From the NCBI GenBank assembly GCA_964610505.1, contig CAZSXU010000007.1, positions 3,594-67,593 of the forward strand: 64,000 nucleotides of DNA. Direction: 5' to 3'. The notes below the pieces were generated by a model. The model worked only from the letters and a program-made list of their open reading frames with translations, was not told the DNA's origin and did no database searches. Position 1 is the first letter of the stretch; each line of letters starts with the position of its first letter. The translations under genes were made by a program, and so were the position numbers. Source of the stretch: an uncultured bacterium. GTDB taxonomy: Bacteria > Arandabacterota > Arandabacteria > JAGLYR01. Below are positions 43,179 to 62,195 of the stretch, piece after piece.

Positions 43179-43200
43179 ACGAACAGGTAGGGGAGAGCCC

Positions 43201-44187: not shown

Positions 44188-44281
44188 GCCGGTCGCGCCT
44201 GCTGGAGAAGACCGGCCGCGGGGGGAGAGGCGCGTTGAATTGCGCTGCGTCTCACCGACCCCGGAAGGTTGAGGAGTTGCC

Positions 44282-46807: not shown

Positions 46808-46880
46808 GCGTGTGCACACTCTGCGGTCCCAGGATTGCCGCTCCGCGCTTCTGACGGATGGAACCGGAAGGTGGAATCGA

Positions 46881-47168
46881 ATGCGTCTGGGCCGGGTTAT
46901 TGGGACCGTCGTTCCCTGCGTTGTCTACGAAGGGCTAACGGGTGTTCCGATGCTCATCGTCACGCCGCTGGATAAACGGGGAAAGCCCAAGGGAACCCCC
47001 TTTGTGGCGGCGGATGCAACGCGCATGGCGGGCCCCGGTGAACTCATCTATTACGAAGCTTCTCGAGAAGCCGCCCTGGCGCTCGACCCGTGGTTCGTCC
47101 CTGTGGATCACGCGATCGTGGGCATCGTTGACGGTGTCGAGCGAGACGGCGTGGAGATCAAACCGTGA
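46881..47168 (+). CDS. BMC vertex pentamer (BMC-P), second copy
   Basis: MRLGRVIGTVV...LIVTPLD EutN/CcmL family. ATG at 46881. Confidence 0.8.
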   Translation: MRLGRVIGTVVPCVVYEGLTGVPMLIVTPLDKRGKPKGTPFVAADATRMAGPGELIYYEASREAALALDPWFVPVDHAIVGIVDGVERDGVEIKP

Positions 47169-47437
47169 TCCTCGGGATTGTCAAGGGGACCGTCTACTCG
47201 ACGATCAACCATCCCTTCTACGACAGCCGGCGACTGCTCCTGGTGGATCTCGTCAACCCGAACGGGAGCGAGACGGGAGGCTACCTCATCGCCATCGACT
47301 CGGTCGATGCAGGCGTAGGGGACCGCGTTCTCATGATCGACGAGGGGAATTCCGCTCGGCAGATCGTGGACGATCCGCAGGCTCCACTTCGGTCCATCAT
47401 CATCGGCATTGTGGACGACGTGCAGGTGTCGGCATGA
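47165..47437 (+). CDS. BMC vertex pentamer (BMC-P), third copy
   Basis: MILGIVKGTVYST...GGYLIAIDSVDAGVGDRVL. GTG start overlaps the previous stop. Confidence 0.8.
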   Translation: MILGIVKGTVYSTINHPFYDSRRLLLVDLVNPNGSETGGYLIAIDSVDAGVGDRVLMIDEGNSARQIVDDPQAPLRSIIIGIVDDVQVSA

Positions 47438-47598
47438 GCCTCGTTCGTTGGAACACCAGGGGCGCAGCCGCAGATTGCACAGACCTCACAGCCAAGGGGA
47501 TCTTTCCGGGATGCACTCCCGTGCGTCCCGGGAAGACCCGGTAGCCTTCGCACGTTCTGTGGAATCTGTGTCATCTGTGGTGGGGGGTTCGCCTTCTC

Positions 47599-48303
47599 AT
47601 GAATGCCGCTTGGCACCTCAGGAAAGAGATCGTCGAGTTCGGGCGCAGGGTCTATGAGAAGAATCTCGTGGCTGCGACGGACGGGAACATCAGTGTCCGC
47701 ATCCTGGGGGATCGGCTCCTCATTACGCCGTCGGGATTCTGTCTGGGGGAGCTCAAACCTGAAGACCTGGTCTATGCCGACTTTGAAGGGAGGACACTCT
47801 CCGGGCGAAACGCCCCCTCCAGCGAGCTCCCAATGCACATTGCGGCGTACGAGGAAAGACCCGACGTTCACGCCATCATCCACGCCCACCCACCGGTGAC
47901 CACGGCGTTCACCGTGGCCGGCTACAATCTGGCTCAATGCGTGATTCCGGAGGTTGTCCTGATCTTCGGATGTATCCCCACCACAGAGTATGCAACGCCG
48001 TCATCGGAAGAAGGCCCTCGAGTCATCCGGTCTCTCATCCGGAAGCACGACGCGCTGATTCTCGATCGGCATGGATCCCTTACGGCGGGTTGCAGCTTGC
48101 GGGAGGCGTATCACAAGCTGGAGAAGGTGGAACACTGTGCACAGGTGACCTTGGCCGCTCGCCAGCTGGGTAACGTCAAGACTCTGACGGCGGATCAGGT
48201 AGAGCGTCTCGAAGAGGTCCGGAAGAAGATGGGGCTCGGAAACGGGTCGTCCCTCTGCAATCTCTGCGGAACGTGCGGAAAGTCCGGCCCGGACGATTCC
48301 TGA
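47599..48303 (+). CDS. Class II aldolase/adducin family protein (fuculose-/rhamnulose-phosphate aldolase-like)
   Basis: ATDGNISVR...HAHPP Zn-binding motifs. Confidence 0.85.
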   Translation: MNAAWHLRKEIVEFGRRVYEKNLVAATDGNISVRILGDRLLITPSGFCLGELKPEDLVYADFEGRTLSGRNAPSSELPMHIAAYEERPDVHAIIHAHPPVTTAFTVAGYNLAQCVIPEVVLIFGCIPTTEYATPSSEEGPRVIRSLIRKHDALILDRHGSLTAGCSLREAYHKLEKVEHCAQVTLAARQLGNVKTLTADQVERLEEVRKKMGLGNGSSLCNLCGTCGKSGPDDS

Positions 48304-48361
48304 ACCCGCGTTACTGAAGAGGGCCGGGGACCCCACGGGGGCCCGGGCGACAAAGAAAACG

Positions 48362-48394
48362 GAGCGGCCCTTGCGGGCCGCTCTCGGTGTTTTA
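48362..48394. terminator. Bidirectional intrinsic terminator (9-bp GC stem GAGCGGCCC/GGGCCGCTC flanked by A-run and T-run) after the BMC operon
   Basis: AAAGAAAAC GGAGCGGCCC ttgc GGGCCGCTC TCGGTGTTTT. Confidence 0.6.
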
Positions 48395-48398
48395 GGGC

Positions 48399-48545
48399 CC
48401 CGCAGTGCCGTGAGTCAACCTCGCGAAAATCCGCGCGTCAAGGGAGTTGAAGTCGGCCCGCGAAACCGATCACGAACACTGCAGGGAAACGGGGCGAACC
48501 GTATTCAGTTGTGTCTCTGCAGGGACGCAATCCGTATGCCAGCCG
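48399..48545. repeat. Conserved 145-nt module, copy C (divergent, with indels relative to copies A and B)
   Basis: Shares GCGCGTCAAGG..TTGAAGTCGGCCC.CGAA...CACGAACACTGCAGGGAA...GCGAACC.TATTCA.TTGTG...CAGGG.CGC...TGCCAG with 51125-51270 and 61222-61365. Confidence 0.8.
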
Positions 48546-48913
48546 AAGGGACAATGTGCCGGGGCGCTCGTGTTCGCGGAAATGCATCCCCCGGGACTGG
48601 CACCGGACGGCTTCACGGGGTATTCTTTGCGGTGTGTGGCCTGGATTGACATGAGCTGAGAAGTAGATTCGCGCTCGCATGGAGGGACGCGCTTCGGAGG
48701 AACCGGCGTTTCCTCACTTCCGGGGAGGGGAATCCCCCAGAGAGATGCCCCATGTGGGTGAAATTCCGCAGGTGGAGTAAGCGGTCCCGGCTGAAGCGAG
48801 ATACACGTCGAGCCGGTCGGGGGGGCGCCGGCCACGGCGACTTGGAATGGTTCTCCTTCACCATCCCGCTATGGACCGGGCTTTCCCGGTTCTGAATCTG
48901 CGTCGCGGGCTTC

Positions 48914-50605
48914 TCAACCGGTCGTCCGATCCGGAACCTGAAGCTTGCCGCTCATCCGCACGGCAATCTCTTTGTGAGCGGCCACGCATTCGCCGAGGAT
49001 CCTCGTCGCCTCCGCCTCGGTTTCCCGGACGAACCGGGGATCGTCGATCCCCGGTAGGTTGATCTTCACGTTGTAGTAGGCGCCCTCTGCGGCTGCGCGC
49101 CCGACCGATGCCGCGACGCCGCCGTCGCTGACCGAGCTCTCCATGCCTTGATCGACGACCTTCCCGGCCAGCTCCATGACCGCGGGAACGCGCCTGAGAA
49201 TCGTGAGCGGCACGAGTGTAGCGTTCCGAGTGGCCTCTTGAATGGCCGCCTCTCGAGCCGCCTTCTCGTCGTCTGTCTTCTTGGGCAATCTCCGGGCCGC
49301 CATGAACTGGTTGAAGGCATGCGTGTCCTGGTTGACCAGGGAGAGGAACTCATCCTTGGCGGCCTGCGCCTCCTCTGCAATCGACGCCATCGCGCCTCGA
49401 AGCCGGACGTAGTCTTTGTTGCCGTGCGTGAGATGAGCCACCATCGACGTGAGCGAGGCGGCCAGCGACCCGGCGAGCGCGGCCACGGACCCTCCTCCGG
49501 GCGCGGGAGAATCCGTGGACAGCTCATCCATGAAATCGGAGACGGGCATCACCGTGAGGTTGACGTCGCCCGCGAACTGGTACTCGATGATCTTCTTCTG
49601 CGGTTCGAAAGGAGTGATCTCACTCATTCCCAGGGATCGCACGGCGATCTTGATCAACTCCTTCTCGGGCACGGCCGGGCACTTGCCCTGCTTGTCGAGG
49701 TAGTACCGTCCGGCCATGAGCATGGCCTCCTTGGGAATGAGGCCCACCAGCTCCGATCCCGTGACCCGCAGGCCGCGCTCGTTGGCTTGCCGGCAAACCT
49801 CTTCGAAGGCTGCGTGGGGCGGCGTCACGTGATAGTTGGTCAGGTTCATGGAGACCTGCGCCGTCTCGAAAGTGTCGAGATACCAGCCTCCGGCCTTGCA
49901 GAACTGGAGTGCGCCGGGGACCTTGACGGCTTTGCCGTCCTTGTCCCGGATGATCTTGCCGGCGCCGTCGCGCTTCGCCCGTCCCTGCTCCCGAATGCTC
50001 AGCGCGATGTCGCGCGCCAACCTCGGATCTCTCGTGTTGAGGTTGATGTTATAGGCAATCAGGAACTCCCGGGCGCCGATCACCGTTGCTCCCGAGCGGG
50101 CGTTGAACACGGGCTCTCCATAGTCCGGGGCCCAGTGAGGGTCCTTGAGTTTCTCCGCCAGCCCTTCGTATTCGCCCTGGCGGATGACGGCAAGGTTCTG
50201 CCGATCCGGCTTCTGCGCCGCGTTCTCATAAAGATAAACCGGAATGGACAGATGCTCGCTGACCCTTTCGGCCAGGCGGTGCGCCATTTCTATGCAGTCG
50301 TCCATGGTCACCCCGGTTACGGGAACGAACGGGCAGACGTCGGTAGCCCCCATGCGAGCGTGCTCGCCGTGATGCCTGCTCATGTCGATGAGCTCGGCGG
50401 CCTTCCGGATGGCGTTGAAAGCGGCATCGACGACGCCCTCCGGTGTGCCGATGAACGTAACCACCGTCCGGTGGGTGTCGGGGCCGGGATCGACGTCCAG
50501 CAGTTTGACCCCCGGCGTATCCGCAATGGGTTTCGTGACGGCGTCGATCACCGCTCGATCTCTGCCCTCGCTGAAATTCGGCACGCACTCGACCAGCTTC
50601 AACAT
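48914..50605 (-). CDS. ftcD: Glutamate formimidoyltransferase / formimidoyltetrahydrofolate cyclodeaminase (bifunctional FtcD-like)
   Basis: N-terminus MLKLVECVPNFSEGRD (formiminotransferase) plus a C-terminal cyclodeaminase domain. Start at 50605; the ORF-track extension to 50830 translates the repeat. Confidence 0.85.
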   Translation of the reverse strand: MLKLVECVPNFSEGRDRAVIDAVTKPIADTPGVKLLDVDPGPDTHRTVVTFIGTPEGVVDAAFNAIRKAAELIDMSRHHGEHARMGATDVCPFVPVTGVTMDDCIEMAHRLAERVSEHLSIPVYLYENAAQKPDRQNLAVIRQGEYEGLAEKLKDPHWAPDYGEPVFNARSGATVIGAREFLIAYNINLNTRDPRLARDIALSIREQGRAKRDGAGKIIRDKDGKAVKVPGALQFCKAGGWYLDTFETAQVSMNLTNYHVTPPHAAFEEVCRQANERGLRVTGSELVGLIPKEAMLMAGRYYLDKQGKCPAVPEKELIKIAVRSLGMSEITPFEPQKKIIEYQFAGDVNLTVMPVSDFMDELSTDSPAPGGGSVAALAGSLAASLTSMVAHLTHGNKDYVRLRGAMASIAEEAQAAKDEFLSLVNQDTHAFNQFMAARRLPKKTDDEKAAREAAIQEATRNATLVPLTILRRVPAVMELAGKVVDQGMESSVSDGGVAASVGRAAAEGAYYNVKINLPGIDDPRFVRETEAEATRILGECVAAHKEIAVRMSGKLQVPDRTTG

Positions 50606-50683: not shown

Positions 50684-51124
50684 GAAGAATAGCGCATTGG
50701 ACAAGAATAGACAATAGACAATGAATGGAAATAGAGAGGTCGGCGGGTTGATATAGAGAAGCGGAGAAGCGGACCGCATTGGAGGAGAATAGACAATAGA
50801 CCGAAATGGTGAAGTCGTCAGGTTCTCCACGACGCCTTTTTCCAGGATCTATTGTCTATTTTCTATTGTCTGCTTCACCATTTCTCTGGGGAACCTAAAC
50901 AGAAAATGGGAGCCAAGTGGCTCCCGAGGTCCGAGGGAAGCGAGGAGAGATTTGAGGATTGGAGGAGAATAGACAATAGACCGAAATGGTGAAGTCGTCA
51001 GGTTCTCCACGACGCCTTTTTCCAGGATCTATTGTCTATTTTCTATTGTCTGCTTCACCATTTCTCTGGGGAACCTAAACAAGAACAGGGAGCCTCATTG
51101 GCTCCCTGTTCTTGTTTAGGTTCC
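50684..51124. repeat. Complex intergenic repeat: AATAGAC iterons, a 180-bp unit in two tandem copies (50781-50960 and 50961-51140, 122 nt identical), and a truncated plus an intact long palindrome
   Basis: GGAGGAGAATAGACAATAGACCGAAATGGTGAAG...TCTATTGTCTATTTTCTATTGTCTGCTTCACCATTTC...GGAACCTAAACA is repeated. A related copy lies at 60952-61167. Confidence 0.85.
51070..51124. terminator. Perfect 25-bp-arm palindrome (GGAACCTAAACAAGAACAGGGAGCC tcatt GGCTCCCTGTTCTTGTTTAGGTTCC): GC stem with flanking A- and T-tracts, like a bidirectional terminator
   Basis: Read directly. The sister palindrome at 61168-61221 has different inner-arm bases that are perfectly compensated. Confidence 0.5.
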
Positions 51125-51270
51125 CCGCATGTGCCGTGTCAGAATTCGTGTCAAGCCTGCGCGTCAAGGTTTTTGAAGTCGGCCCACGAATCAGATTCAC
51201 GAACACTGCAGGGAAGTCGGGGGCGAACCATATTCAATTGTGCTCTCTACCTATTGCAGGGCGCGTGCCA
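51125..51270. repeat. Conserved 145-nt module, copy A
   Basis: Near-identical to 61222-61365 over about 120 nt. Not coding: copies differ by frame-breaking indels. Confidence 0.85.
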
Positions 51271-51553
51271 GGAATGCCGGCGTCCGGCCGTGAAGGCCGT
51301 TTGCGGTTTGGGTGAATTCCTCGTTCGCGTTTACAGAGAGAAGTCGGTCGTGAAATGGGCGATTCTTGACTTTCCTCAAACCTGTCGGAACGCCTTCCGG
51401 TGGGGCGCAGGACGCCATCTCCGGGGACGAACGGTATCCGCCGCCGGTGGGAAATGGAAAAAAGGCCCGGAAGAGCCGGGAAAGTGGGGGAGATGACCCG
51501 ACCGGCCACTCTCGGCTGCGAAACCCGCCTCGTGCCTGTTGCGTAGGAGGGCC

Positions 51554-52303
51554 ATGTCTGTTAGTGTGTTGCGCGGCGCGCAAGGAAAGGACGAATACGG
51601 CTTGATACGAACCGTGGATCTCTGCAGGTACTATGGGAGCGGCCCTCAGGAAGTACGGGCGGTGGATCGTGTGAATTTCGCCGTGGAGCAGGGTGGATTC
51701 CTGGGAATCGTGGGGGCCTCCGGATCGGGGAAGTCGACGCTTCTGAATCTCCTGGCGGGGCTGGACTCCCCGACGGCGGGCCGGGTCGAAATCGATGGCA
51801 CGGCGTTGAGCGATCTCACGCGAAGAAACCTTGCAGCCTACCGAGCACGCCGCGTCGGCATCGTTTTCCAGTCTTTCAATCTGATGCCCCATTACACGGC
51901 CGCGGAGAACGTGGAGCTGGCCCTCTACTTCACCGACATCGCCAAAGGGGAACGCCGCTCGCGCTCCCGCGACATCCTGGCCCGCCTGGGGCTCAGGGAT
52001 CGCCTGACGCATCGGCCCGCCGACCTTTCCGGCGGAGAGCAGCAGAGGGTGGCTCTTGCCCGCGCTCTGGTCAAGGAGCCTCACGTTCTCTTCGCGGACG
52101 AACCGACGGGGAACCTGGACCGGAAGAACTCCGAGGACATCGCCGGTCTTCTGACCGAGCTGAATGGGGAGGGGCTCACCATCGTCCTGGCCACCCACGA
52201 CCTCGATATGGCGCGTGTCTGCGCCCACCGCATGGTGCAGATGGAGTACGGGCGGTTGGCGGAAGGCACGGCCGATTCTCAAGGGCCGGGAGACCGTCGA
52301 TGA
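51554..52303 (+). CDS. ABC transporter ATP-binding protein (MacB/LolD type)
   Basis: Walker A GASGSGKST, signature LSGGEQQRVALARAL and Walker B. The start is uncertain; candidates are 51539, 51554 and 51602. Confidence 0.8.
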   Translation: MSVSVLRGAQGKDEYGLIRTVDLCRYYGSGPQEVRAVDRVNFAVEQGGFLGIVGASGSGKSTLLNLLAGLDSPTAGRVEIDGTALSDLTRRNLAAYRARRVGIVFQSFNLMPHYTAAENVELALYFTDIAKGERRSRSRDILARLGLRDRLTHRPADLSGGEQQRVALARALVKEPHVLFADEPTGNLDRKNSEDIAGLLTELNGEGLTIVLATHDLDMARVCAHRMVQMEYGRLAEGTADSQGPGDRR

Positions 52304-53763
52304 ACACGAGGGATCTTCTCTCCATCGCGATCGGCAGTCTTCAGCGGATGAAACTCCGGACTTTCCTCACGGTCTCCGGCGTCATCATCGCCATCGCTGC
52401 TTTCGTGGGCATGTTGTCCTTCGGCGCCGGCATGCAGCAGAGCATATCGAAAGATTTCGACGAGCTGGGACTCCTGTCCACGATCCAGGTCTTCTCCTCA
52501 AGCAACGGCGATGCGTCCGACTCCACCGCCGCTCGGATTCTCGACGATGAAACAGTCGGCCGTCTCGCACAGTTGCCGGGAGTCAACCTGGCGTATCCGC
52601 TCGATGCGTTCCAGGTCACGGTGTCCCTGGCGGACACGCAGGTGAACGTGAGTGCCCAGGCGCTCTCGGGTGCCGCGGCGGGAACGAAATTCTACTCGCG
52701 TCTGGCGGCCGGAACGCCGTTCACTTCCGACGATGCGCGTGAGGCCCTGGTCACGTCGCGGTTGCTCGAGCGGCTGGGACGCGTGGACCCGGATTCCCTG
52801 GTGGGGAAACCGGTGGTTGTTTCGGCCGAGATTGCCAGCCTGGACAGTGGTTTGGTTCACATGTTCCGCGACGCGGACCCCGAAGGCGCCCGACGGCTGA
52901 TGGACGTATTCCTTCCCGGACGCGGCGACCGGAGTGAGGCAAAGGAAATCCTGCAGGCCGAGATGACGAGCGCTCTTCAACGGTTCCTGAACGGTTACAT
53001 GAGAGCGAATGCGGTGGTGACGGACACGCTGATCGTGCGCGGTGTTCTGGATGACCGCATGGGCGGGCCCTGGAGAATTAAGCCGCTTCTGGTTCCGGTA
53101 AGAACAGCTCGACGACTCTCGCCGGGGGATTTTGGCAGCAGTCCTGCGAATCTCTTCGCCTACCTGAACAGCGGTGCGCGCATCGAGCTTGGTGGGGAAG
53201 AGGGGAGCAGGAACTACCCCCATGTGACGCTCAACCTTGATTCGCGTGCGGATCCGAATGTGGTGGCGGACACGCTCGAGGCAATGGGATTCCGCGTGTT
53301 CAGCTATGCCCGCGAGTTTCGCGAAATGCGGAAGTTCTTCCTCTTCTTCGACATGGCACTCGGGGTAGTGGGGTTCATTGCCCTCGTGATTGCCTCCCTT
53401 GGAATCGTCAACACTCTGGTCACCTCGATTGTGGAGCGCAGGCGCGAGATTGGTATTCTCAAATCGCTGGGCGCGGACGAGGGTTACATCCGGGTTCTCT
53501 TCCTTGTGGAATCCGGTACGATCGGCGCGCTGGGTTCCGGCATCGGGATTGTGTTCGGATGGCTGATCACGAGGGTCGCCTCGGTGGCCTCCCGGATCTA
53601 TCTGAATCGCCAGGGGCTCCCGGACATGGACCTCTTTGCCCTGCCGATCTGGCTGATCCTGGTCGGCTTTTTCTTCGGTCTGGGCGTCAGCATTGCGGCC
53701 GGCCTCTATCCGGCTGCTCGGGCCGCCGCAGTCGATCCTGTGGAAGCGCTTCGGAGTGACTAG
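52300..53763 (+). CDS. ABC transporter permease, FtsX/MacB-like (N-terminal TM, large periplasmic domain, three C-terminal TM helices)
   Basis: Topology and FtsX C-terminal motifs. Overlaps the ATPase stop, so the two are co-transcribed. Confidence 0.8.
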   Translation: MNTRDLLSIAIGSLQRMKLRTFLTVSGVIIAIAAFVGMLSFGAGMQQSISKDFDELGLLSTIQVFSSSNGDASDSTAARILDDETVGRLAQLPGVNLAYPLDAFQVTVSLADTQVNVSAQALSGAAAGTKFYSRLAAGTPFTSDDAREALVTSRLLERLGRVDPDSLVGKPVVVSAEIASLDSGLVHMFRDADPEGARRLMDVFLPGRGDRSEAKEILQAEMTSALQRFLNGYMRANAVVTDTLIVRGVLDDRMGGPWRIKPLLVPVRTARRLSPGDFGSSPANLFAYLNSGARIELGGEEGSRNYPHVTLNLDSRADPNVVADTLEAMGFRVFSYAREFREMRKFFLFFDMALGVVGFIALVIASLGIVNTLVTSIVERRREIGILKSLGADEGYIRVLFLVESGTIGALGSGIGIVFGWLITRVASVASRIYLNRQGLPDMDLFALPIWLILVGFFFGLGVSIAAGLYPAARAAAVDPVEALRSD

Positions 53764-53872
53764 AAGATAAGAGACGCAACGCACCAGAGCCCCGATTTGT
53801 TCTGTAATCGTATATGATTATAAGAGGTTAGGAGAGTGAGGGTTTTTTCAGCAATTCGATTTAATCAAATGC

Positions 53873-53901
53873 TTGACTTAATCAATCAATTGATTTATAC
53901 T
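53873..53901 (+). promoter_or_regulatory. Near-consensus sigma70 promoter with an embedded perfect 12-bp palindrome AATCAATTGATT (53884-53895): likely a TetR-family operator
   Basis: TTGACT, 17-nt spacer, TATACT. AT-rich island of about 100 bp directly upstream of the TetR gene and efflux operon. Confidence 0.5.
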
Positions 53902-53954
53902 GGGTGTGTGGGCGTGGATCAGTCAAGGTTGGCCGACCTGCAGGAGGCGGTTCG

Positions 53955-54677
53955 ATGAGCGGCACCCGGCCGGGTGGTCGCAGGCGTAAAGAAGATGAAC
54001 CCGGTGCATTCCGGCGTTTTCTTGAGGGAATCCCTTCTGATCTCGAGGCGCCCCCTTCCGGTAGTCCACCGGGCCGGATTCTCCGGTCCGCCCGGGCACT
54101 GTTCGCCCGTCACGGTTTCGATTCGACAAGCACGCGCGCGATCGCCGAAAAGGCCGGCGTCAATCAGGCGATGATCCATTACTACTTCGGAACCAAGGGG
54201 CGGCTGTATCGGCGAGTGATCTCGCTGGAGATCCTCGACGTCTTTCGCTCCATCTCCGGCGAACTCGAAACGGAAGATCCGCCGGACGCGATCGTGGTGC
54301 GGATTCCGTTGGAGATTATGGGCCAACTCCGCAGTGATCCCGTGCGGCGGAATCTCCTTCGGCGAGAGATCGGCCAGGGCTCGGAGCACGCAGGACAGGC
54401 GGTGATCGCCATGCGTGAGTATGGTCCGCGAGGGTTTCGGAGTTTGCTGACGGCTCTGCTGGAGGCCGGTCAACGTGAGGGTCGATTCCGGTCCCTTCCC
54501 GCGAATGCCGTTCTCCCGTTTCTGCTCAGTGTGGCCTATGGATCGATGATGCTGGAGCCGCTTTTCGAGGTCGTATTGGGCCGGAGTGTCGAGGAAGAAG
54601 ACGTCTGGAACGCGCGCGTGGAGACATTTGAGGCTCTTCTGCGACATGGGCTGCTGGTTGGGGAGAAGGAATCATGA
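53955..54677 (+). CDS. TetR/AcrR family transcriptional regulator
   Basis: N-terminal HTH (RALFARHGFDSTSTRAIAEKAGVNQAMIHYYF). AGGAGG RBS before the ATG at 53955. Confidence 0.85.
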   Translation: MSGTRPGGRRRKEDEPGAFRRFLEGIPSDLEAPPSGSPPGRILRSARALFARHGFDSTSTRAIAEKAGVNQAMIHYYFGTKGRLYRRVISLEILDVFRSISGELETEDPPDAIVVRIPLEIMGQLRSDPVRRNLLRREIGQGSEHAGQAVIAMREYGPRGFRSLLTALLEAGQREGRFRSLPANAVLPFLLSVAYGSMMLEPLFEVVLGRSVEEEDVWNARVETFEALLRHGLLVGEKES

Positions 54678-55996
54678 AAGACATCCGACACCTGAGGTGT
54701 CTCGGCGCCGTACTTCTGTGGTGCGTGGGGTGGGGGGTGGCCGCGGAGGACGGACGAGCCTCCGATGTCTGGACATTGGAGCGCTGTGAACGGGAGGCCC
54801 TGGTCAGGTCCCATGAAGTTGGGGTCGCCGCGTATCGTCTCCAGCAGGCGGAGGCAAGTGCCGACGAAGCCGAGGCCGTCCGGAGGCCGACGCTGTCGGC
54901 CTCCGGCGCCTACACGTACACGAGCGAGACGATGGAACTTGGTCTTCCCGCACTGGGGACGTTCAACCTTCCCACGATTCGTTTCGGTGACGGGAACGTA
55001 TACGACCTCGGCCTGGTCGCGAGCGTTCCCCTTTTCACGGGAGGCGCCCTTCGAAGCAGGGCGCAGGCGGAGCGGGCCGCGTCCCGGGCGGCGCGTCACG
55101 ATCTCGCCGCCGACAGCCTTCAGGTGGTACACGAGGTTCGAACCGCCTACTTCAGAGCCCTTGGGGCCAAGGCGCAGGCGGATGCAGCTCGCGTGGCGGA
55201 GGACCGTCTTCGCCGTCACGTCACAGATCTGGAAGCGGCAATCGAGATCGGTGCCGCGGCGGAAGAAGCTCGTATCCAGGCCCTCTCACGCCTCCGCCAG
55301 GGAGAGCAGAGGCGGTTGCAAGCCGACCTCGGGGCGTCGGTCGAAACGCTGAATCTCGGCAGACTCGTCGGTCGGCCGGGAGAGGAACCGGACCTGCTGG
55401 ACAACCTCAGGCGACCGCTCTTCCTGCACGAGCCGTTCGTGCGGGGAGACAGCGTCGATGGTCGGCCGGAGTTGGCGGCGTTTGACGAGCGAATTCAGCA
55501 GAGCGAGAGGTTGGCCGGGGCAGCGAGGGGGGCGTATTTCCCGACCCTCTCGGCGCAGTTGAGCTACCATCATGCCAAGCCCGGCGTGGATCTGATTGCC
55601 GACGAATGGATGCAATATGCAGCGGCGGGGATTGTCCTCTCGTGGCCGATCTGGGATTGGGGCGCCCGTGCTCAGCGGGTCCGCGGTGCGCGCGTTGCTG
55701 GTCGTGTCCTGGAGGAACAGAGGGCGCTATTGCACGACGCGCTGCGAAACAACCTGGCCGTCGCCCTATCCGCCCTGGCGTCGGCCCGGGAGCAGGCCGC
55801 GAAAGTGGGCGAACGCGCGGAACTCGAACGCCGCCGTCTGGAACTGGTAAAGGGGCGATACAAGAATGCGGCTGCCACGGAGAGCGAACGGCTCGACGCC
55901 GAAGATGATCTGGCCGCGGCAGAGATGGATCTCGCCGCCGCCACGGCGCACGTCCGGTTGGCCGAGGCGGATGTGTTGTACGCCCTTGGACAATAG
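54674..55996 (+). CDS. TolC family outer-membrane efflux protein
   Basis: Signal peptide and two TolC repeat halves. Overlaps the TetR stop. Confidence 0.85.
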   Translation: MKDIRHLRCLGAVLLWCVGWGVAAEDGRASDVWTLERCEREALVRSHEVGVAAYRLQQAEASADEAEAVRRPTLSASGAYTYTSETMELGLPALGTFNLPTIRFGDGNVYDLGLVASVPLFTGGALRSRAQAERAASRAARHDLAADSLQVVHEVRTAYFRALGAKAQADAARVAEDRLRRHVTDLEAAIEIGAAAEEARIQALSRLRQGEQRRLQADLGASVETLNLGRLVGRPGEEPDLLDNLRRPLFLHEPFVRGDSVDGRPELAAFDERIQQSERLAGAARGAYFPTLSAQLSYHHAKPGVDLIADEWMQYAAAGIVLSWPIWDWGARAQRVRGARVAGRVLEEQRALLHDALRNNLAVALSALASAREQAAKVGERAELERRRLELVKGRYKNAAATESERLDAEDDLAAAEMDLAAATAHVRLAEADVLYALGQ

Positions 55997-56039
55997 AGCG
56001 ATGGAGACGAATACAGGGAACGATCTTCTGGACCCATGA

Positions 56040-56969
56040 GTGATGGAGACGAAGATGATGCGCTTACACAGAGTGGGGGGGAGGACGATCTGCCGGTGGA
56101 TCGCTCTATTCCCCTTCGTGATTCTGGTGGCGATCGCCGGTTGCAGAAACGGGCGGAACGGTCCCAATCCGTCCGGAACCCTCGAAACCACCGAGATTGA
56201 TCTCGGTTCACCTCTGGGAGGCCGGGTTCTCGATGTTCGTCCTGGGCTGGGGGATCGTGTGTCGGTGGGGGATACACTGGTTCTCTTCGATGTGGAGCTG
56301 ATCGAGCTCCAGCGGGCGCAGGCCGAGGCCAATCGAAGGAGCATCGAGGTGCAGCGCGATCTGGCCGAGGAAGACCTTCGGCAGGCCGAGCGGAATCTCG
56401 ATCTGGCCGAGACCACTCTCCGTCGTCTCCAATCTCTCCTGGAGCAGGGAAGCACAACCGGGCAGCAGGTCGACGATCTCACGGCGAAGAGGGACGTGGC
56501 TGCGATCCAGGTGTCGGCCGCCAGACAACATCTCGGACTTTTCGAGGCCGAAGAGGCCAAGCTCGTTGCGGCGCTTGCCGTGTTCGATCGTCAGCTGGAA
56601 GACGGGATCCTGGTCTCTCCGGCATCGGGCACGGTCCTTGTCCGGGCCGTGGAGCCCGGGGAGATCGCCCTCCCCGGCGCAACGGCCCTCAGAATCGCGG
56701 ATCTGTCCGAACTGGAACTCCGGGTCTTCCTCTGCGAGGAGAACCTGGATCTTGTACACCTGGGTCAACGGATGCCCGTTCTGGTGGACGCGCTGGAGGG
56801 TGAGGCACTCGAGGGAACGGTGGCCTGGATCAGTGATGAAGCCGAATTCACACCGAAGAACGCACAGACACGAAACGCACGGGCCCAGCTGGTCTACGCC
56901 GTCAAACTCCGAGTTGGGAATCCTGACGGGCGTCTCCACATCGGGATGCCGGCCGAAATTCGGCTCTAA
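56040..56969 (+). CDS. HlyD-family periplasmic adaptor (membrane fusion protein)
   Basis: Lipobox/TM, coiled coil, and a C-terminal HIGMPAEI motif typical of YbhG/EmrA-type adaptors. Confidence 0.8.
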   Translation: MMETKMMRLHRVGGRTICRWIALFPFVILVAIAGCRNGRNGPNPSGTLETTEIDLGSPLGGRVLDVRPGLGDRVSVGDTLVLFDVELIELQRAQAEANRRSIEVQRDLAEEDLRQAERNLDLAETTLRRLQSLLEQGSTTGQQVDDLTAKRDVAAIQVSAARQHLGLFEAEEAKLVAALAVFDRQLEDGILVSPASGTVLVRAVEPGEIALPGATALRIADLSELELRVFLCEENLDLVHLGQRMPVLVDALEGEALEGTVAWISDEAEFTPKNAQTRNARAQLVYAVKLRVGNPDGRLHIGMPAEIRL

Positions 56970-56975
56970 CGCGCG

Positions 56976-57920
56976 GTGAAAACTATGGGCGAGGAACCCG
57001 CCGCCATTCGGTTTTCCAATCTGAAGAAGCGCTACGGCAACGTGAGGGCGCTGGACGGACTTGCGCTGGACGTTCGGCGTGGGGAGGTCTTCGGGCTTAT
57101 CGGACCCGACGGATCGGGGAAGACCACGGCGATGAGGATCGGGTGTGGCCTGGTTGTTCCGGACACCGGGTCCGCCGAGGTCGCCGGTTTCGATTGCGTC
57201 CGCCAATCCCGGGCGGTGAAAGAGCATCTGGGGTACATGCCGCAGCGCTTCAGCCTGTATCCGGATCTCACCGTATCGGAGAATCTCCGGTTCTTTGCGG
57301 ACATGTTTGAGGTCTCTGCAGCCGAACGTGTGAAGCGGCAGGCGGAGCTGATGGAATTCAGCGGTCTGGGGCCATTCTTGAATCGCCGAGCCGGCGCTCT
57401 CTCGGGAGGAATGAAACAGAAACTGGCACTGTGCTGTACGTTGATCCACACGCCCGACGTCCTGGTCCTCGACGAGCCCACGACGGGCGTGGATGTCGTC
57501 AGCCGGAGAGAGTTCTGGAACATCATCCGTGGACTTGCTTCGGACGGATTGGCCCTTCTTGTCAGCACGCCCTACATGGACGAGGCCATGCTTTTCGACC
57601 GCGTGGTTCTCATGCACCGGGGGCGCGCGATTGCCGAAGGGACTCCTCGGGCCGTGACGGAACGCTTTGAAAGGCGACTGCTGGAGATCAAGGGACCGGG
57701 GATCCGGGAAGCCCGAGAGCGGCTTCTGGCGGCGGACCTGCCGGCGGTCGAGGTGCACCGCTTCGGAGATCGACTGCATGTTGTGCATGATTCGGAGGAG
57801 CAGGAAGCGGCCCTCGCGCGCCATCTCTCGGGCATCAACGTTGGGGTCGCGCCCATCCGCCCGGATATCGAGGATGCCTTTGTGGGGCTCGTGAGTGCGG
57901 AGCGGGAGGCATCCGCATGA
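56976..57920 (+). CDS. ABC transporter ATP-binding protein (ABC-2 / YbhF-like, first copy)
   Basis: GPDGSGKTT, LSGGMKQKLAL, DEPTTGVD. Confidence 0.9.
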   Translation: MKTMGEEPAAIRFSNLKKRYGNVRALDGLALDVRRGEVFGLIGPDGSGKTTAMRIGCGLVVPDTGSAEVAGFDCVRQSRAVKEHLGYMPQRFSLYPDLTVSENLRFFADMFEVSAAERVKRQAELMEFSGLGPFLNRRAGALSGGMKQKLALCCTLIHTPDVLVLDEPTTGVDVVSRREFWNIIRGLASDGLALLVSTPYMDEAMLFDRVVLMHRGRAIAEGTPRAVTERFERRLLEIKGPGIREARERLLAADLPAVEVHRFGDRLHVVHDSEEQEAALARHLSGINVGVAPIRPDIEDAFVGLVSAEREASA

Positions 57921-58711
57921 ACGCCTTCGATGGACATGCGGCCGCCCCAGGATCGGACGCGTCTTCCGGGTGCGAGACGCACAATCCGGGGACGTGTGCC
58001 GTTCTGGCGGAGAATCTGACTCGCCGCTTCGGCGATTTCACGGCCGTCGATCACATCCAGCTGGCCGTGGAGAGGGGAGAGATCTTCGGATTTCTCGGCG
58101 CCAACGGGGCGGGGAAGACCACGGCCATCCGTATGTTCTGCGGTCTGCTACAGCCCACGGAGGGGGACGGGTGGGTGGACGGGATCTCCGTCCGCGAGAA
58201 CCCGGAGCGGATCAAACGTCGCATCGGATACATGAGTCAGAGGTTCAGCCTCTATGAGGACCTGACCGTTGAGGAGAATCTCTCGTTCAGCGGGGGCATC
58301 TACGGTCTGGGACGGCGTGCCATCGCCGAACGAGGGAGTGAATTGCTCGGGCGGCTCGGACTGGATGCCCACCGCCGCCGGATTACCGGTTCGCTTCCGC
58401 TGGGGTTCAAGCAGCGGTTAGCGCTCGGTTCGGCCGCACTTCATTCCCCCGGAATCCTGTTTCTCGACGAACCCACGGGCGGCGTCGACCCTCTGGCCCG
58501 GCGCCAGTTCTGGGACCTCATCTACGAACTGGCGGACGGCGGGACCACCGTTTTCGTGACGACGCACTACATGGACGAGGCCGAGTACTGCGGCCGCGTC
58601 TCCATCATGATCCAGGGGAAGATCATGGCGCTCGGTTCCCCGGAGGATCTTAAGCGGCAAACCGGAGCGAAGAGCATGCAGGACGTATTCCTCAGGGTGG
58701 TGGAAGGATGA
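57917..58711 (+). CDS. ABC transporter ATP-binding protein (ABC-2 / YbhF-like, second copy)
   Basis: GANGAGKTT, signature motif, DEPTGGVD. Confidence 0.9.
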   Translation: MNAFDGHAAAPGSDASSGCETHNPGTCAVLAENLTRRFGDFTAVDHIQLAVERGEIFGFLGANGAGKTTAIRMFCGLLQPTEGDGWVDGISVRENPERIKRRIGYMSQRFSLYEDLTVEENLSFSGGIYGLGRRAIAERGSELLGRLGLDAHRRRITGSLPLGFKQRLALGSAALHSPGILFLDEPTGGVDPLARRQFWDLIYELADGGTTVFVTTHYMDEAEYCGRVSIMIQGKIMALGSPEDLKRQTGAKSMQDVFLRVVEG

Positions 58712-59814
58712 AGCGCGTGCTGGCGGTGGCGCGCAAGGAAACGTATCACATTCTCCGTGATCCGCGGAGTCTCGCCGTGGCCGTGGTCATGCCCATAATG
58801 ATGGTATTGTTGTTTGGATACGCCATCAACATGGATCTGGCAAACGTACCGGTCGGGATTCTGGATCAGGACCGGAGTCCGGCGAGCGCCGATTTCATCA
58901 CGAGGATGACGTCCGGCGACTTCATTCTGGAGGTCGCGCGCCTGGGCGCCCGGGACGAAGTGGAACCCGGATTTCGCAGGGGATTGTTCCGGGCGGTGCT
59001 GGTGATTCCTCAAGGTTTCGGCGAACGCCTGGTGTCGGAACCACTGTCGGAGATCCAGATTCTCATCGACGGGGCGGATGCGACGACGGCGGCCGCCGTG
59101 GACAACTATCTCAAGGCCGTGGTGGGGATGGTGAATCTGGATCTCATGGTGAGGCAGGGGAACGCTCGATTCCGGTCTCAGGAACTCCGTTCCCGTGTCC
59201 TGTTCAATCCGGAACTCGAAAGCTCCCACTTCGTCGTCCCGGGTTTGGTGGCGGTGGTCCTGATCATGATCTGTGCGCTCCTGACCAGCATTGCGATCAC
59301 ACGGGAAAAAGAAACCGGGACGATGGAGCAGGTTCTCACGACACCGCTGGCTCCCCGTCAGCTGGTTCTCGGAAAGGTCCTGCCCTACCTCGTCATCGCG
59401 TCGGTGGACGCCGCGCTGGTTCTGGCCGTGGGTAACCTGATCTTCGGTGTGCCCATGCGGGGCTCCTGGTGGCTGCTGGCCGGGTACAGCCTGATCTATC
59501 TTCTCATCGCGCTGGCGCTGGGGCTGTTGATCTCCGCCGTTACGAAGACGCAGCGGGTGGCGATGATGATCGCGCTGGTGACCACTCTGCTCCCAACGCT
59601 GATCCTCTCCGGGTTCGTGTTTCCTCTGGCCAGCATGCCGCTTCCGTTGCGAATGATCGGCCGGATCATTCCAGCCACCTACTTTCTGGAAGTCATCCGG
59701 GGTATTATGTTGAAGGGGAGGATGTGGTTCCCCGTCCAGGGTGGGGTCATGCTGGGAATGGCGGTCCTTCTCCTGGGCATGGCGGGCCGGCGCTTTCGAA
59801 CGAGACTGGAGTAA
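58708..59814 (+). CDS. ABC-2 type transporter permease (YbhS/YbhR-like)
   Basis: Six TM helices. ABC-2 family N-terminus (KE..HILRDPRSL). Confidence 0.85.
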   Translation: MKRVLAVARKETYHILRDPRSLAVAVVMPIMMVLLFGYAINMDLANVPVGILDQDRSPASADFITRMTSGDFILEVARLGARDEVEPGFRRGLFRAVLVIPQGFGERLVSEPLSEIQILIDGADATTAAAVDNYLKAVVGMVNLDLMVRQGNARFRSQELRSRVLFNPELESSHFVVPGLVAVVLIMICALLTSIAITREKETGTMEQVLTTPLAPRQLVLGKVLPYLVIASVDAALVLAVGNLIFGVPMRGSWWLLAGYSLIYLLIALALGLLISAVTKTQRVAMMIALVTTLLPTLILSGFVFPLASMPLPLRMIGRIIPATYFLEVIRGIMLKGRMWFPVQGGVMLGMAVLLLGMAGRRFRTRLE

Positions 59815-59819
59815 ATCGC

Positions 59820-60950
59820 GTGGTCCGCTCGGTTCTCTATCTGGTGCAGAAGGAATTCCGGCAGGTCTTTCGCGACCGGACACTGCTTCGGGTGATTCTG
59901 ATTGTCCCGATCGTGCAGATCTTCGTTCTGGGATACGCGGCGAACACGGATCTCAAGAACGTCCGGCTCTCCGTACTGGATCAGGATTCGAGCCGCGACA
60001 GCCGCTCCCTGGCCGATGCATACTACGCCTCCGACGTGTTTATCCCGGGCCCGCGCGCGTCGTCCCCGGCGGAGCTCCAGAATCTTCTTCTGGAAGGACA
60101 AACGGATGTCGGGTTGTGGATTCCGAGGGGGTACGCAGCGACGTTGCTGACGAGTGACGCCGTCGCCGTCTCTATGACATTCAACGGTCAGAACAGCAGC
60201 GCCGCCGGCCGGAGTGTAGGCTACGCAAGCGAGATCGCCCTTCAGGAAGTCGGTCGGTACCTGGAGTCGGCGGCCCTCGCGCAACCCGACCTTGCACGCC
60301 GGGCCCGGCGGATTGAATCGTCCTCCCGCTTCTTCTATAACCCCGAACTGCGAAGCCAGCACTATATGGTGCCGGGGATCGTGGTCCTCCTGATCACGAT
60401 CATCTCCGCCCTGCTGACGGGCGTGGCGGTGGTGAGGGAGCGGGAGATCGGCACGTTGGAGCAGCTGATGGTGAGTCCTCTCACGCCCGGCCAGTTGATT
60501 GCGGGGAAGACCATCCCGTTTGCCCTCATTGCTTTCTTCGAGTTGACCTTCGCAACGACGGTAGCCGTGCTCTGGTTCAGGCTTCCCCTCGAAGGGTCCG
60601 TGCTGCTCCTCGGTGTTGCGGCCGCGATCTACCTGAATGTAACCCTGGGCGTTGGACTGCTGGCGTCCACGGTCTCGTCCACGCAGCAGCAGGCGATGTT
60701 CACGATGTGGTTCTTCCTGGTGTTCGGGATTCTGATGAGCGGATTCTTCTACCCGATTGAGAACATGCCGCGCGAAGTTCAGTGGCTGACCTACCTGAAT
60801 CCGCTGCGGTACATGATGAGTATGGTCCGCGGGATCTTCCTCCGAGGATCGGGCGTGGTGGATCTCGCACCCGACCTTGCCCGGCTGGCCATCATTGGAG
60901 TCGTGACCTTCGCCGGCGCGGCGCTGAGGTTCCAGAAGAGACTTGGGTAG
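59820..60950 (+). CDS. ABC-2 type transporter permease, second copy
   Basis: Paralog of the previous permease (LVQKEFRQVFRDRTLL). GTG start assumed at 59820. The upstream part of ORF 59469 overlaps the previous gene in another frame. Confidence 0.75.
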   Translation: MVRSVLYLVQKEFRQVFRDRTLLRVILIVPIVQIFVLGYAANTDLKNVRLSVLDQDSSRDSRSLADAYYASDVFIPGPRASSPAELQNLLLEGQTDVGLWIPRGYAATLLTSDAVAVSMTFNGQNSSAAGRSVGYASEIALQEVGRYLESAALAQPDLARRARRIESSSRFFYNPELRSQHYMVPGIVVLLITIISALLTGVAVVREREIGTLEQLMVSPLTPGQLIAGKTIPFALIAFFELTFATTVAVLWFRLPLEGSVLLLGVAAAIYLNVTLGVGLLASTVSSTQQQAMFTMWFFLVFGILMSGFFYPIENMPREVQWLTYLNPLRYMMSMVRGIFLRGSGVVDLAPDLARLAIIGVVTFAGAALRFQKRLG

Positions 60951-60951
60951 G

Positions 60952-61167
60952 GCATTGGACGAAAATAGACAATAGACAATAGACCGAAATGGTGAAGTCG
61001 TCAGGTTCTCCACGATGCCTTTTTCCAGGATCGGGGGGGACGTGGAAAGGACCCATTGCGATAGAGAAGCAGAGAAGCGGACCGAAACGGAAGGGGCTGA
61101 GTGGTTGTCCATGATGCGGTTGTCCGCATCTGTTTCTCTGTTTCTCGGCTTCTCCGTTTCTCTGCGG
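60952..61167. repeat. Complex intergenic repeat, right-hand copy (AATAGAC iterons x3, GAAATGGTGAAGTCGTCAGGTTCTCCACGATGCCTTTTTCC, GAGAAGC shuffled inverted motifs)
   Basis: Related to 50684-51124 and in the same orientation. Confidence 0.85.
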
Positions 61168-61221
61168 GGAACCTAAACAGAAAATGGGAGCCAAGTGGCT
61201 CCCATTTTCTGTTTAGGTTCC
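61168..61221. terminator. Perfect 25-bp-arm palindrome (GGAACCTAAACAGAAAATGGGAGCC aagt GGCTCCCATTTTCTGTTTAGGTTCC)
   Basis: Read directly from the sequence. Confidence 0.5.
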
Positions 61222-61365
61222 CCGCATGTGCCGTGTCAGAATTCGTGTCAAGCCTGCGCGTCAAGGTTTTTGAAGTCGGCCCACGAATCAGATTCACGAA
61301 CACTGCAGGGAAGTCGGGGGCGAACCATATTCAATTGTGATCTCCACCCATTGCAGGGCGCGTGC
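61222..61365. repeat. Conserved 145-nt module, copy B
   Basis: Near-identical to 51125-51270. Confidence 0.85.
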
Positions 61366-61673
61366 CAGAAGACGTGGGTCGGGAGAAAAAGTGAACGCGG
61401 TGCCATCCCGTGAATGTGAGTTCACAGGGAGACGCCCTGTAGGAGCGCGTGAGGGGCATTCGTGAGAGTCAGAAATGTCGAACGTAATGTGGCAAGACCG
61501 AGAGTTTGGAACCCAGCTACGGGCCGACAAGGGAGCGATCTGAGCCAACTCCCCCAGATCCTGTCTCGGAAGCGGGTCAGATCCCTCAATCGGGCACCGT
61601 TGTCTTCCCTGTAGGAGGGGATTCCTATCCCCGGTGCTTGAATCCGGTCCCGTCCGCTGGTAACGTCTGGCTG

Positions 61674-62195
61674 ATGAACGACTCCCACCACCTGGAGGTG
61701 ATGATGGCGAAATACTCGAGTCAATTCCCCGATCCCGTAACTCTGGTGACGGTCAGGACGGACAACGAGACCAATTTCATGACGGCCGGGTGGGCGTCCC
61801 CTGTCTCGTTTGATCCCCCGATTCTCATGGTGAGTATCGCCCCCGAGCGCCACACGCACAATCTCATCCTGGAAGCCGGGGAATTCGGCATCTCCATCCT
61901 GGCCGATGACCAGAGGAATCTGTCCACACTCGGCGGTACGACGAGCGGAAGGGACGTCGACAAGATTGCGGAAGGCAACGTGGCGACTGCCCCGGGCGAG
62001 AAGATCCGGGCCCCCCACGTCGCCGGAGCGCGCGCGTGGTTGGAGTGCAAACTGGTCTCGCACGAGACGGTCGGCGATCACACGGTGTTCTACGGTGAGG
62101 TTCTGAAGACCGTTGCGGACGAGGCGAAGTCGGCGCTCGTGTTGTTCAATCGGGTGTACTACGCGCTCGGGGAGAAGAGAGGAGTCTATCCGTAG
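61674..62195 (+). CDS. Flavin reductase family protein (FMN-binding split barrel)
   Basis: LVTV...NFMTAGWASPVSFDPP...HT motifs. Start at 61674 or 61701; the ORF opens at 61506 inside the repeat. Confidence 0.8.
   Translation: MNDSHHLEVMMAKYSSQFPDPVTLVTVRTDNETNFMTAGWASPVSFDPPILMVSIAPERHTHNLILEAGEFGISILADDQRNLSTLGGTTSGRDVDKIAEGNVATAPGEKIRAPHVAGARAWLECKLVSHETVGDHTVFYGEVLKTVADEAKSALVLFNRVYYALGEKRGVYP

Follow-up and report, generated by a model that had tools for sequence, protein, structure and literature searches.

Direct repeats around an efflux gene cluster in Candidatus Eisenbacteria contain a candidate small RNA gene with a sigma-54 type promoter

Genes and repeats at the locus

The DNA analysed here, hereafter called the window, is a stretch of 64,000 nucleotides (nt) from an uncultured bacterium of the Candidatus Eisenbacteria, in which a block of efflux genes is enclosed by two long direct repeats. 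Each repeat contains a long palindrome and a module of approximately 145 nt, and this pair of elements, which probably constitutes a small RNA (sRNA) gene, is the main subject of this study. The block comprises genes for a TetR regulator, a TolC-family outer membrane protein, an HlyD-family adaptor, two ABC ATPases and two ABC-2 permeases, together with a MacB-like pair, and the Pfam and NCBIfam matches bore out this gene content and its bracketing by homologous repeats, as given in a preliminary description of the locus made from the sequence alone. The gene encoding glutamate formimidoyltransferase-cyclodeaminase, FTCD, lies in divergent orientation on the left flank and a flavin reductase gene on the right flank (Table 1).

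Relatives were collected by a protein search with FTCD and by contig look-ups, resulting in five Candidatus Eisenbacteria species: A, the window organism; B, contigs L023 to L025 (which includes L017); C, L026 to L029; D, L030; and E, L031 and L032. L017, a metagenome-assembled genome of Candidatus Eisenbacteria, was the only true relative obtained from a scan of a genome collection. The five species contain nine distinct copies of the element.

The direct orientation of the repeats was verified, and the features described earlier were found at approximately the positions reported, the left repeat extending over 50684-51271 and the right over 60948-61368. The AATAGAC iterons, a 65-nt segment, the palindrome and the module are present in both repeats in the same order, as had been proposed, but one minor segment is out of order, 50748-50783 pairing with 61056-61091. 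In a self-comparison of the window the palindrome and module (51069-51271 and 61166-61368) were 90 % identical over 203 nt without gaps, and with gaps (51046-51271 and 61142-61368) 91 % identical over 228 nt (E 3e-78); 152 nt of the two repeats are identical at 98 %. In the right repeat, the counterpart (60951-60984) of the outer boundary of the left repeat begins directly past the ABC-2 stop codon. A third copy of the module is found outside the block at 48388-48513, 2.7 kb to its left and in the same orientation, with 78 % identity; a sensitive self-comparison showed that it is preceded by its own, shorter hairpin.

The left repeat also contains an internal duplication with a period of 180 nt. 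The duplication reported earlier is thus present, with copies 95-97 % identical, but it is not a clean tandem, since a filler of 32 nt separates the copies. Ongoing instability of the repeat, which had been suggested from it, was not seen: the duplication is identical in three other long assemblies (L019 to L021), and its copies have already diverged by 3-5 %. Long contigs from independent assemblies of the same organism were 99.995-100 % identical through both repeat regions, and the repeats are therefore not an assembly artefact. Shorter contigs stop within the repeats, at window positions 50807, 61217 and 61310.

Table 1 Genes and sequence elements in and around the efflux block, with their positions in the window. 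Strand is given where a feature has one; R1 is the covariance model built from the alignment of the nine RNA copies
Feature	Position	Strand	Evidence and remarks
Candidate sRNA, left copy (FTCD-side, ancestral position)	51069-51243	minus	R1, 190 bits; fold z = -7.95; orthologues in species B to E
Sigma-54 type -24/-12 promoter of left copy, TGGCACGCGCCCTGC	51255-51270	minus	Pattern scan; predicted start near 51244
Candidate sRNA, right copy	61167-61340	minus	R1, 193 bits; convergent with last ABC-2 gene; confirmed in other assemblies
Sigma-54 type promoter of right copy	61352-61367	minus	Pattern scan
Candidate sRNA, third copy (aldolase-side paralogue)	48345-48514	minus	R1, 142 bits; orthologues B_2 and E_2; 48345-48541 with promoter
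Sigma-54 type promoter of third copy, TGGCATACGGATTGC	48526-48541	minus	Pattern scan
Terminator hairpin of third copy, GAGCGGCCC-GCAA-GGGCCGCTC then CGTTTTCTTT	48362-48383	minus	Terminator scan
Palindrome, left	51068-51126	minus	27-nt arms, 100 % complementary; GC hairpin core between A-tract and U-tract
Palindrome, right	61163-61226	minus	31-nt arms, 100 % complementary; putative terminator of right copy
Right-type terminator remnant	50888-50925	minus	95 % complementary to 61186-61223; 5' extension of palindrome missing; inside the 180-bp duplication; 50925-50908 flagged by terminator scan
65-nt segment, GAGAATAGACAATAGACCGAAATGGTGAAG...CCAGGATC	50785-50849, 50965-51029, 60968-61032		97-100 % identical; twice in left repeat, once in right
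Internal duplication of left repeat	50778-50925 and 50958-51106		Two copies of approximately 149 nt
Outer boundary of left repeat, GCATTGGAC and AATAGAC iterons	50693-50725		Counterpart at 60951-60984
Terminator-like hairpin, GATGCGGTTGTCCGCATC then TGTTTCTCTG	61113-61130	plus	Terminator scan; better than hairpin of 65-nt segment
Relic terminator, CCCGGCTCTTCCGGG then CCTTTTTTCC	51464-51480	minus	Upstream of left sRNA promoter; kept in species B and D
FTCD gene	48914-50605	minus	Pfam FTCD_N, FTCD, FTCD_C; conserved neighbour of candidate sRNA
MacB-like pair: ABC ATPase	51554-52303	plus	Pfam, NCBIfam; absent in species B and D
MacB-like pair: FtsX/MacB_PCD permease	52300-53763	plus	Pfam, NCBIfam; absent in species B and D
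TetR regulator	53955-54677	plus	In species D, not in B
TolC-family outer membrane protein	54674-55996	plus	In species D, not in B
Core exporter: HlyD-family adaptor, two ABC ATPases, two ABC-2 permeases	56055-60950	plus	Pfam, NCBIfam
Flavin reductase gene, right flank	61704-62195	plus	NCBIfam and contig look-ups

The palindrome and module as a candidate sRNA gene

The palindrome and the module of each repeat are interpreted together as a stand-alone, previously undescribed sRNA gene on the minus strand, an interpretation that we consider probable. Conservation of the sequence, covariation in the fold, a constant placing of the promoter and terminator motifs and conserved synteny were all observed, and from these features the RNA is predicted to be transcribed, to depend on sigma-54 and to have a function.

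At the outer end of the module lies a sequence of the form TGGCAC-N5-CTGC (TGGCAT-N5-TTGC in the third copy), with the GG at -24 and GC at -12 of sigma-54 type promoters, just upstream of the RNA 5' end. The pattern TGGCA[CT]-N5-[CTG]TGC had exactly three matches on both strands of the window, each in front of a module, and six in 52 kb of sequence from the relatives. These nine were the sole matches in 116 kb, and all nine are at an equal offset before an RNA copy; the number expected by chance, by our own estimate and assuming equal base frequencies, was approximately 0.7 per 128 kb scanned. TGGCA and TGC are constant in all nine copies and the spacer between them is variable. The transcript would begin approximately 12 nt downstream of the promoter, where the conserved sequence starts, and the product would measure approximately 165-185 nt, consisting of a 5' tail, a hairpin domain and a terminator. 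A scan for sigma-70 promoters found no site in either repeat region.

All nine copies end in a terminator hairpin, which differs in sequence from copy to copy and retains its pairing, and the RNA is non-coding and structured. The palindrome is probably the Rho-independent terminator of the sRNA, and probably a bidirectional one, given the symmetric A- and U-tracts. Like known bidirectional terminators, it has a GC-rich hairpin with an A-tract upstream and a U-tract downstream, and it lies between convergent units (sRNA and aldolase gene, or sRNA and ABC-2 gene), whereas the A- and U-tracts of the putative terminators in the window are perfectly complementary and thus give perfect palindromes of 27-31 bp. 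The full palindromes were not reported by the terminator scan of the window; we suspect that the pairing of the A- and U-tracts, which lengthens the stem, was the cause. The minus strand was also indicated by the best Rfam matches at relaxed thresholds, independently of the promoter and terminator evidence.

The possibility of a small protein was also considered. The 26-codon open reading frame (ORF) of the left copy has no start codon in the other copies and its frame is broken by indels, and a coding sequence was excluded on the grounds of these indels of 1-2 nt, which are not multiples of three, and of the absence of a conserved start codon.

Predicted structure and covariation

A consensus structure with 46 pairs was calculated with RNAalifold from the nine RNAs (Table 1 gives the window copies). 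In it the unpaired tail is followed by the closing stem P1 (14 pairs), the 8x8 internal loop, P2 (counted as two helices of 6 and 5 pairs), P3 and the terminator. The single-stranded 5' tail, ACAACUGAAUA.GGUUCGCCCCC, is approximately 40 nt long, and P3 is a 4-bp apical hairpin in a nearly invariant apex (GGCCGACUUCAA...CCUUGACGCGC). The hairpin domain P1-P2-P3 has approximately 97 nt and the conserved structured body approximately 125 nt. Folding of single sequences gave the same architecture for a window copy (z = -7.95) and for the diverged copy B_2 (z = -6.57).

Standard pairs occupied 88.8 % of the cells of the alignment, compared with 40-54 % when the partners were slid by 1-3 columns. 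Changes on both sides were seen at 17 pairs, compared with 7.4 ± 1.9 in shuffled alignments, and none of 500 shuffles attained the observed value. Compensatory changes were found at 12 of the 17 terminator pairs and at four of the six pairs of the outer P2 helix. The covariance model R1 recognised exactly three copies in the window (142-193 bits) and six others. The unpaired tail (GGUUCGCCCCC) and the apex, both invariant, are likely functional sites, either for base pairing or for protein binding, and the likeliest role of the RNA would be that of a trans-acting regulator which pairs with mRNAs or binds a protein through the tail or the apex.

Several observations weigh against a stand-alone sRNA gene of this kind. 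Only one of the 14 pairs of P1 covaries and P1, which is nearly invariant, is therefore supported mainly by conservation; moreover, the nine sequences are related to each other and the structure was derived from the same alignment, so the statistics given above are inflated. There is no GAFTGA motif of a sigma-54 activator, no RpoN box and no rpoN gene within the window. Shared 9-mers gave nothing convincing as an activator site common to the regions upstream of the nine promoters, and the duplication that gave rise to the right copy did not include any of the sequence preceding the promoter. No target common to species A and B emerged when the tail and apex were compared by RNAduplex with the start regions of the genes nearby in each. 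Finally, an sRNA gene does not account for those parts of the repeats that consist of iterons and the 65-nt segment.

The orthologous FTCD-side copies alone share GAGGAATTC... at about -60. The window contains no hallmark motifs of Hfq or CsrA.

The iterons and the 65-nt segment

The iteron AATAGACAATAGA, with up to two mismatches, had 15 matches in the window compared with 0.22 expected. The 65-nt segment contains AATAGAC iterons, GAAATGGTGAAG and a weak plus-strand hairpin followed by CCTTTTTCC; either this hairpin or the one at 61113-61130 could end the efflux operon. Steric considerations, by inference only, led us to reject a pseudoknot in which the arms of the iterons and of GAAATGGTGAAG would be interleaved. 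Both the iterons and the segment were found in the window species only; species B, C and D lack them downstream of the RNA.

Dispersed AATAGAC iterons with a partial 65-nt segment also occur at 3754-3809, inverted relative to both repeats, where they are followed by an array of TGTCGCC(T) octamers; this site (3754-3874) is a convergent intergenic region 47 kb from the block. Micro-tandem arrays with units of 6-8 nt (for example CGAGTA/GTACTC and GGGCGAGT), often in forward and reverse sets from which hairpin or terminator arms are built, are found between genes at 10920-10950, 29220-29250, 29983-30045, 31823-31985, 32384-32456, 33645-33677 and 47556-47580. The iterons and the 65-nt segment seem to belong to this wider micro-tandem habit of the genome.

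A non-autonomous dispersed repeat of the miniature inverted-repeat transposable element (MITE) or repetitive extragenic palindrome (REP) type, with no RNA function, would account for an iteron and 65-nt portion that is dispersed, as the piece at 3754-3809 illustrates, and specific to the window species, in a genome rich in intergenic micro-tandem hairpins. Such an explanation suits the non-core parts of the repeats only. In five species the module itself is found at orthologous positions, where it shows compensatory changes and a conserved promoter and terminator, it has neither terminal inverted repeats nor target-site duplications, and there are just three copies in 64 kb; as an account of the repeats as a whole, a dispersed repeat is exceedingly improbable.

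Distribution in relatives and position relative to FTCD

Between species A and B (L017/L023) the module is 81-82 % identical, compared with 70-77 % for the neighbouring genes, and no other intergenic DNA could be aligned. The genome-collection scan with the 18-mer CACGAACACTGCAGGGAA gave 17 matches, about the number expected by chance, and a metagenome scan with a two-part pattern yielded just one contig, from the same organism. R1 found no copy at FTCD loci with approximately 66 % protein identity (Coatesbacteria and others from more distant phyla). The family looks confined to a narrow clade, at least beside FTCD.

The copies fall into two groups by position. In species A to D the FTCD-side copy precedes FTCD and has the same orientation; in species E it converges on the 3' end of that gene. 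Those on the aldolase side are found at the 3' end of the aldolase gene of a microcompartment locus in species A, B and E, where they are always convergent. Altogether, five of the nine copies (A_right, A_third, B_2, E_1 and E_2) are convergent with the next gene.

The upstream, co-oriented position in species A to D, with 148-460 nt from the terminator to the FTCD start codon, would also suit a cis-acting leader of FTCD, in which a sigma-54 promoter would precede a structure that senses a ligand or a protein, and an attenuator terminator would come last. A leader would be expected always to precede and to be co-oriented with its gene, but the five convergent copies face the 3' end of the next gene, and the four co-oriented cases represent one ancestral arrangement and are not independent of each other. 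In addition, a sigma-70-like sequence, TTGACG-N17-TA(T/C)C(C/G)T, was read by eye after the terminator and before FTCD in species B, C and D, and no riboswitch family matched the element. We regard an FTCD leader as most improbable; a stand-alone gene fits better, given the convergent copies and the TTGACG-type sequence before FTCD.

Two lineages and the origin of the right copy

The bodies of the FTCD-side copies are 74-85 % identical among themselves and those of the aldolase-side copies 64-74 %, and these values show what appear to be two old paralogue lineages in this Eisenbacteria clade. The body of the right copy in the window is 99 % identical to that of the left copy and 80-85 % identical to the orthologues, suggesting either a recent origin of the right copy by duplication or its homogenisation with the left. 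It is absent at the matching position in species B, where the missing stretch of approximately 690 nt corresponds to the RNA gene, approximately 200 nt downstream of it and approximately 270 nt of unique sequence upstream. From A and B alone this junction does not distinguish insertion in A from deletion in B, and insertion or later homogenisation is favoured by the 99 % identity of the bodies. The homology between the left and right copies ends 1-2 nt upstream of the right-copy promoter.

In the window species, the FTCD-side gene would have been copied, together with approximately 200 nt of species-specific, hairpin-forming downstream sequence, to a position just past the ABC-2 stop codon. 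The bracketing of the efflux operon would then be a side effect of the duplication of an RNA gene, and not the structure of a mobile element. The terminator of the right copy is 81 % identical to that of species B and the terminator of the left copy 67 %; this and the right-type remnant within the left repeat indicate that the copies have exchanged sequence in the past.

In species E (L031, 1548-5700) FTCD is inverted relative to the two RNA copies flanking it, compared with species A to D, which may reflect a rearrangement between or beside direct RNA copies. The microcompartment locus of the window (approximately 41775-48303) encodes a DeoC/RpiB fusion, a CsoS1D-like protein, a BMC-H protein, three EutN proteins, an aldehyde dehydrogenase and a class II aldolase, and it is syntenic beside FTCD in species A, B, C and E. 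Between the promoter of the third RNA copy and the FTCD stop codon the window has approximately 370 nt of non-coding DNA (48545-48914), and at the equivalent position species B, C and D have a gene for a glycosyltransferase-like protein (GT87/PMT_2) of approximately 540 amino acids.

Resemblance to 6S RNA

At gathering thresholds Rfam gave no match in the window, and no tRNAs were found. At relaxed thresholds 6S RNA (RF00013) was the best match of the body, apart from hairpin matches to the palindrome only, with scores of 37.4, 37.4 and 32.4 bits for the window copies and 31.2 bits for copy D_1, all below the gathering threshold of 46.4 bits. The central bubble and terminal stem-loop of 6S RNA are not present, there being only the 8x8 loop and the 25-nt apex, and 81-83 central positions of the 6S model were deleted in the alignments. 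As both score and architecture fall short, the element fails membership of the 6S family, and the resemblance is treated as a lead.

One reading of this lead is that the RNA is a reduced offshoot of 6S, a 'half-6S' that would bind RNA polymerase and in which the closing stem, the first loop and the second stem have been kept and the bubble and terminal stem replaced by the conserved apex of 25 nt. The strand of the 6S matches is the correct one, and the closing stem (CCCUGCaGUGUUCGUGA ... ACGGCACaUGCGGGG) is near the consensus on both of its sides; the order of stem, internal loop and stem and the total length are also similar. FTCD, through its cyclodeaminase, makes 5,10-methenyl-tetrahydrofolate (5,10-methenyl-THF), and in four species the RNA is directly upstream of its gene and co-oriented with it. 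This echoes the linkage of ssrS, the 6S RNA gene, with ygfA: 6S genes are often linked to ygfA (PMC9130861), which encodes 5-formyl-THF cyclo-ligase, also with 5,10-methenyl-THF as product (PMC7641849). The folate one-carbon gene beside the candidate RNA is FTCD and not ygfA; the linkage is a supporting feature of 6S rather than a defining one.

The positions deleted in the alignments are, on the other hand, those of the bubble and terminal stem that are required in 6S for mimicry of an open promoter. Of the nine copies, five had no 6S match at E <= 0.1, and E-values are inflated for hairpin-shaped models, the palindrome alone matching miRNA families at 1e-8. A sigma-54 type promoter, up to three copies and an own terminator also set the candidate RNA apart from 6S, for which several copies and an own terminator are atypical. 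A reduced 6S is judged unlikely, and the same low probability is given to its extension, in which up to three sibling genes would be transcribed by sigma-54 polymerase and the RNA would not act by base pairing but on RNA polymerase or some other protein. If true, a half-6S transcribed from a sigma-54 promoter would link sigma-54 activation to the control of polymerase. The sub-threshold resemblance to 6S and the linkage to a folate gene form an unusual combination, which may merit the attention of specialists.

Comparison with sibling sRNAs

Multicopy sibling sRNAs driven by sigma-54 include Qrr1-5 of Vibrio and GlmY/GlmZ of enterobacteria. The stand-alone sRNA gene proposed here would resemble them in being a short non-coding gene with its own -24/-12 promoter and intrinsic terminator, and in having paralogues with near-identical cores that arose by local duplication. 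It differs in having no sequence or Rfam relation to them, in its larger size (approximately 170 nt) and long, rod-like hairpin domain, and in coming from an uncultured phylum. Sibling sRNAs that arose by gene duplication have also been described for the csrB copies in Vibrio (PMC6262261) and for LhrC in Listeria (PMC4132741).

Literature searches gave nothing on sRNAs or sigma-54 in Eisenbacteria. The element, whose promoter class is clear, whose fold is supported and whose single-stranded motifs are invariant, is a candidate for a new sRNA family in Candidatus Eisenbacteria. If confirmed as such, it would give a first way into the sigma-54 regulons of this lineage and its regulation by RNA.

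The efflux cluster and the question of mobility

The ATPases and permeases of the core exporter match models of the RbbA/DrrA-B type, and the best model for the adaptor was NF002939, 'secretion protein HlyD'. The cluster combines an adaptor, two ATPase domains, two permeases and a TetR regulator, as expected of a YbhGFSR/CecR-type exporter, and the earlier comparison with cecR-ybhGFSR was apt. The order of TetR, HlyD-family adaptor, two ATPase domains and two ABC-2 permeases is the same in both, whereas in the window the ATPases are two separate, unfused proteins, the cluster has its own TolC-family gene inside and the MacB-like pair lies upstream.

The core exporter is syntenic in species B with 70-71 % DNA identity. 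There the RNA and FTCD lie on one side, and HlyD-ABC-ABC-ABC2-ABC2, a spacer of 102 nt and the flavin reductase gene on the other; only the left element is present, without the right copy, the MacB pair, TetR and TolC. In species D, TetR-TolC-HlyD-ABC is present and a GATase_4 gene is located between the cluster and the RNA. Species C has no efflux genes beside FTCD in the sequence covered. The MacB pair was found in the window species only, among the species compared. The differing arrangements in species B, C and D indicate that the exporter core is ancestral at this position and that the accessory genes come and go independently. The relic terminator shared by A, B and D, which in the window has no gene to end, follows GATase_4 in species D, which suggests loss of GATase_4 in A and B.

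Direct repeats of approximately 400 bp could in theory be recombination substrates that delimit the efflux block, which would then have been acquired as a unit and could be excised as a circle or amplified, as the preliminary description had envisaged. Homologous recombination is physically possible, as the repeats are direct and 152 nt at 98 % identity is enough for it in principle; past exchange between the copies is indicated by the right-type terminator remnant and the internal duplication in the left repeat, and short-read assemblies break within the repeats. A unit defined by the repeats was not supported by the relatives, the GC content or the public contigs. In species B and D the presence of the block did not follow the repeat boundaries. 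Synteny of the core genes extends to species B, which lacks the right repeat, and the occurrence of the MacB pair, TetR and TolC is independent of the repeats. The expectation that related genomes with the same genes but without flanking repeats would speak against a mobile block was realised in part, since species B has the core genes and the left element only. The left element is older than the split of the species, and the third copy lies outside the block. The GC content was 0.58-0.67 within the block and 0.61-0.64 outside, so the block equals its flanks in composition. Pfam gave transport and regulator domains only and no mobility genes in the block, and no integrase or transposase, target-site duplication or terminal inverted repeats were found at its boundaries. 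None of the public contigs carrying the FTCD or flavin reductase gene joins both flanks; they have the same order or end in a repeat, and there were no excised or amplified variants among them. Acquisition or mobility of the block as a repeat-delimited unit is thus very unlikely.

Judged from its sequence and synteny, the efflux cluster is an ordinary, vertically inherited YbhGFSR-like ABC-2 exporter and not a unit defined by repeats. A resistance-type operon enclosed by long direct repeats is not necessarily a mobile unit.

Other features of the window and its relatives

A motif of 33 nt (CTGYAGGAGGGGATTCC..TCCCCGG..TTGA) occurs at 10979-11011 and 61609-61641 with 85 % identity, the latter site preceding the flavin reductase gene. 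It contains a GGGGA...TCCCC palindrome and abuts a -35-like TTGA, and may be a shared operator. A similar palindrome of the GGGGA...TCCCC type is found at 48722-48745, upstream of the third RNA copy.

Strain variation was observed at approximately 39900-41660. L020 and L021, which are 99.995 % identical to the window elsewhere, diverge from it to the left of 41660, and at 18947-21692 of these contigs a phage-type integrase gene and an HTH_17 gene replace the ORF of 177 amino acids, the metallophosphatase gene and the beta-lactamase-family gene of the window. The GC content of the window at 40000-40999 is 0.50, compared with approximately 0.62 around it.

A unit of 12 nt, CCCACGGCGCCG, is repeated in tandem at 14042-14149 in approximately seven copies with 87 % matches. 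L018, a contig continuing beyond the right end of the window, contains at 1325-3183 a paralogue of the gene for a protein of 762 amino acids at 1461-3749 of the window, 65-69 % identical to window positions 1866-3724.

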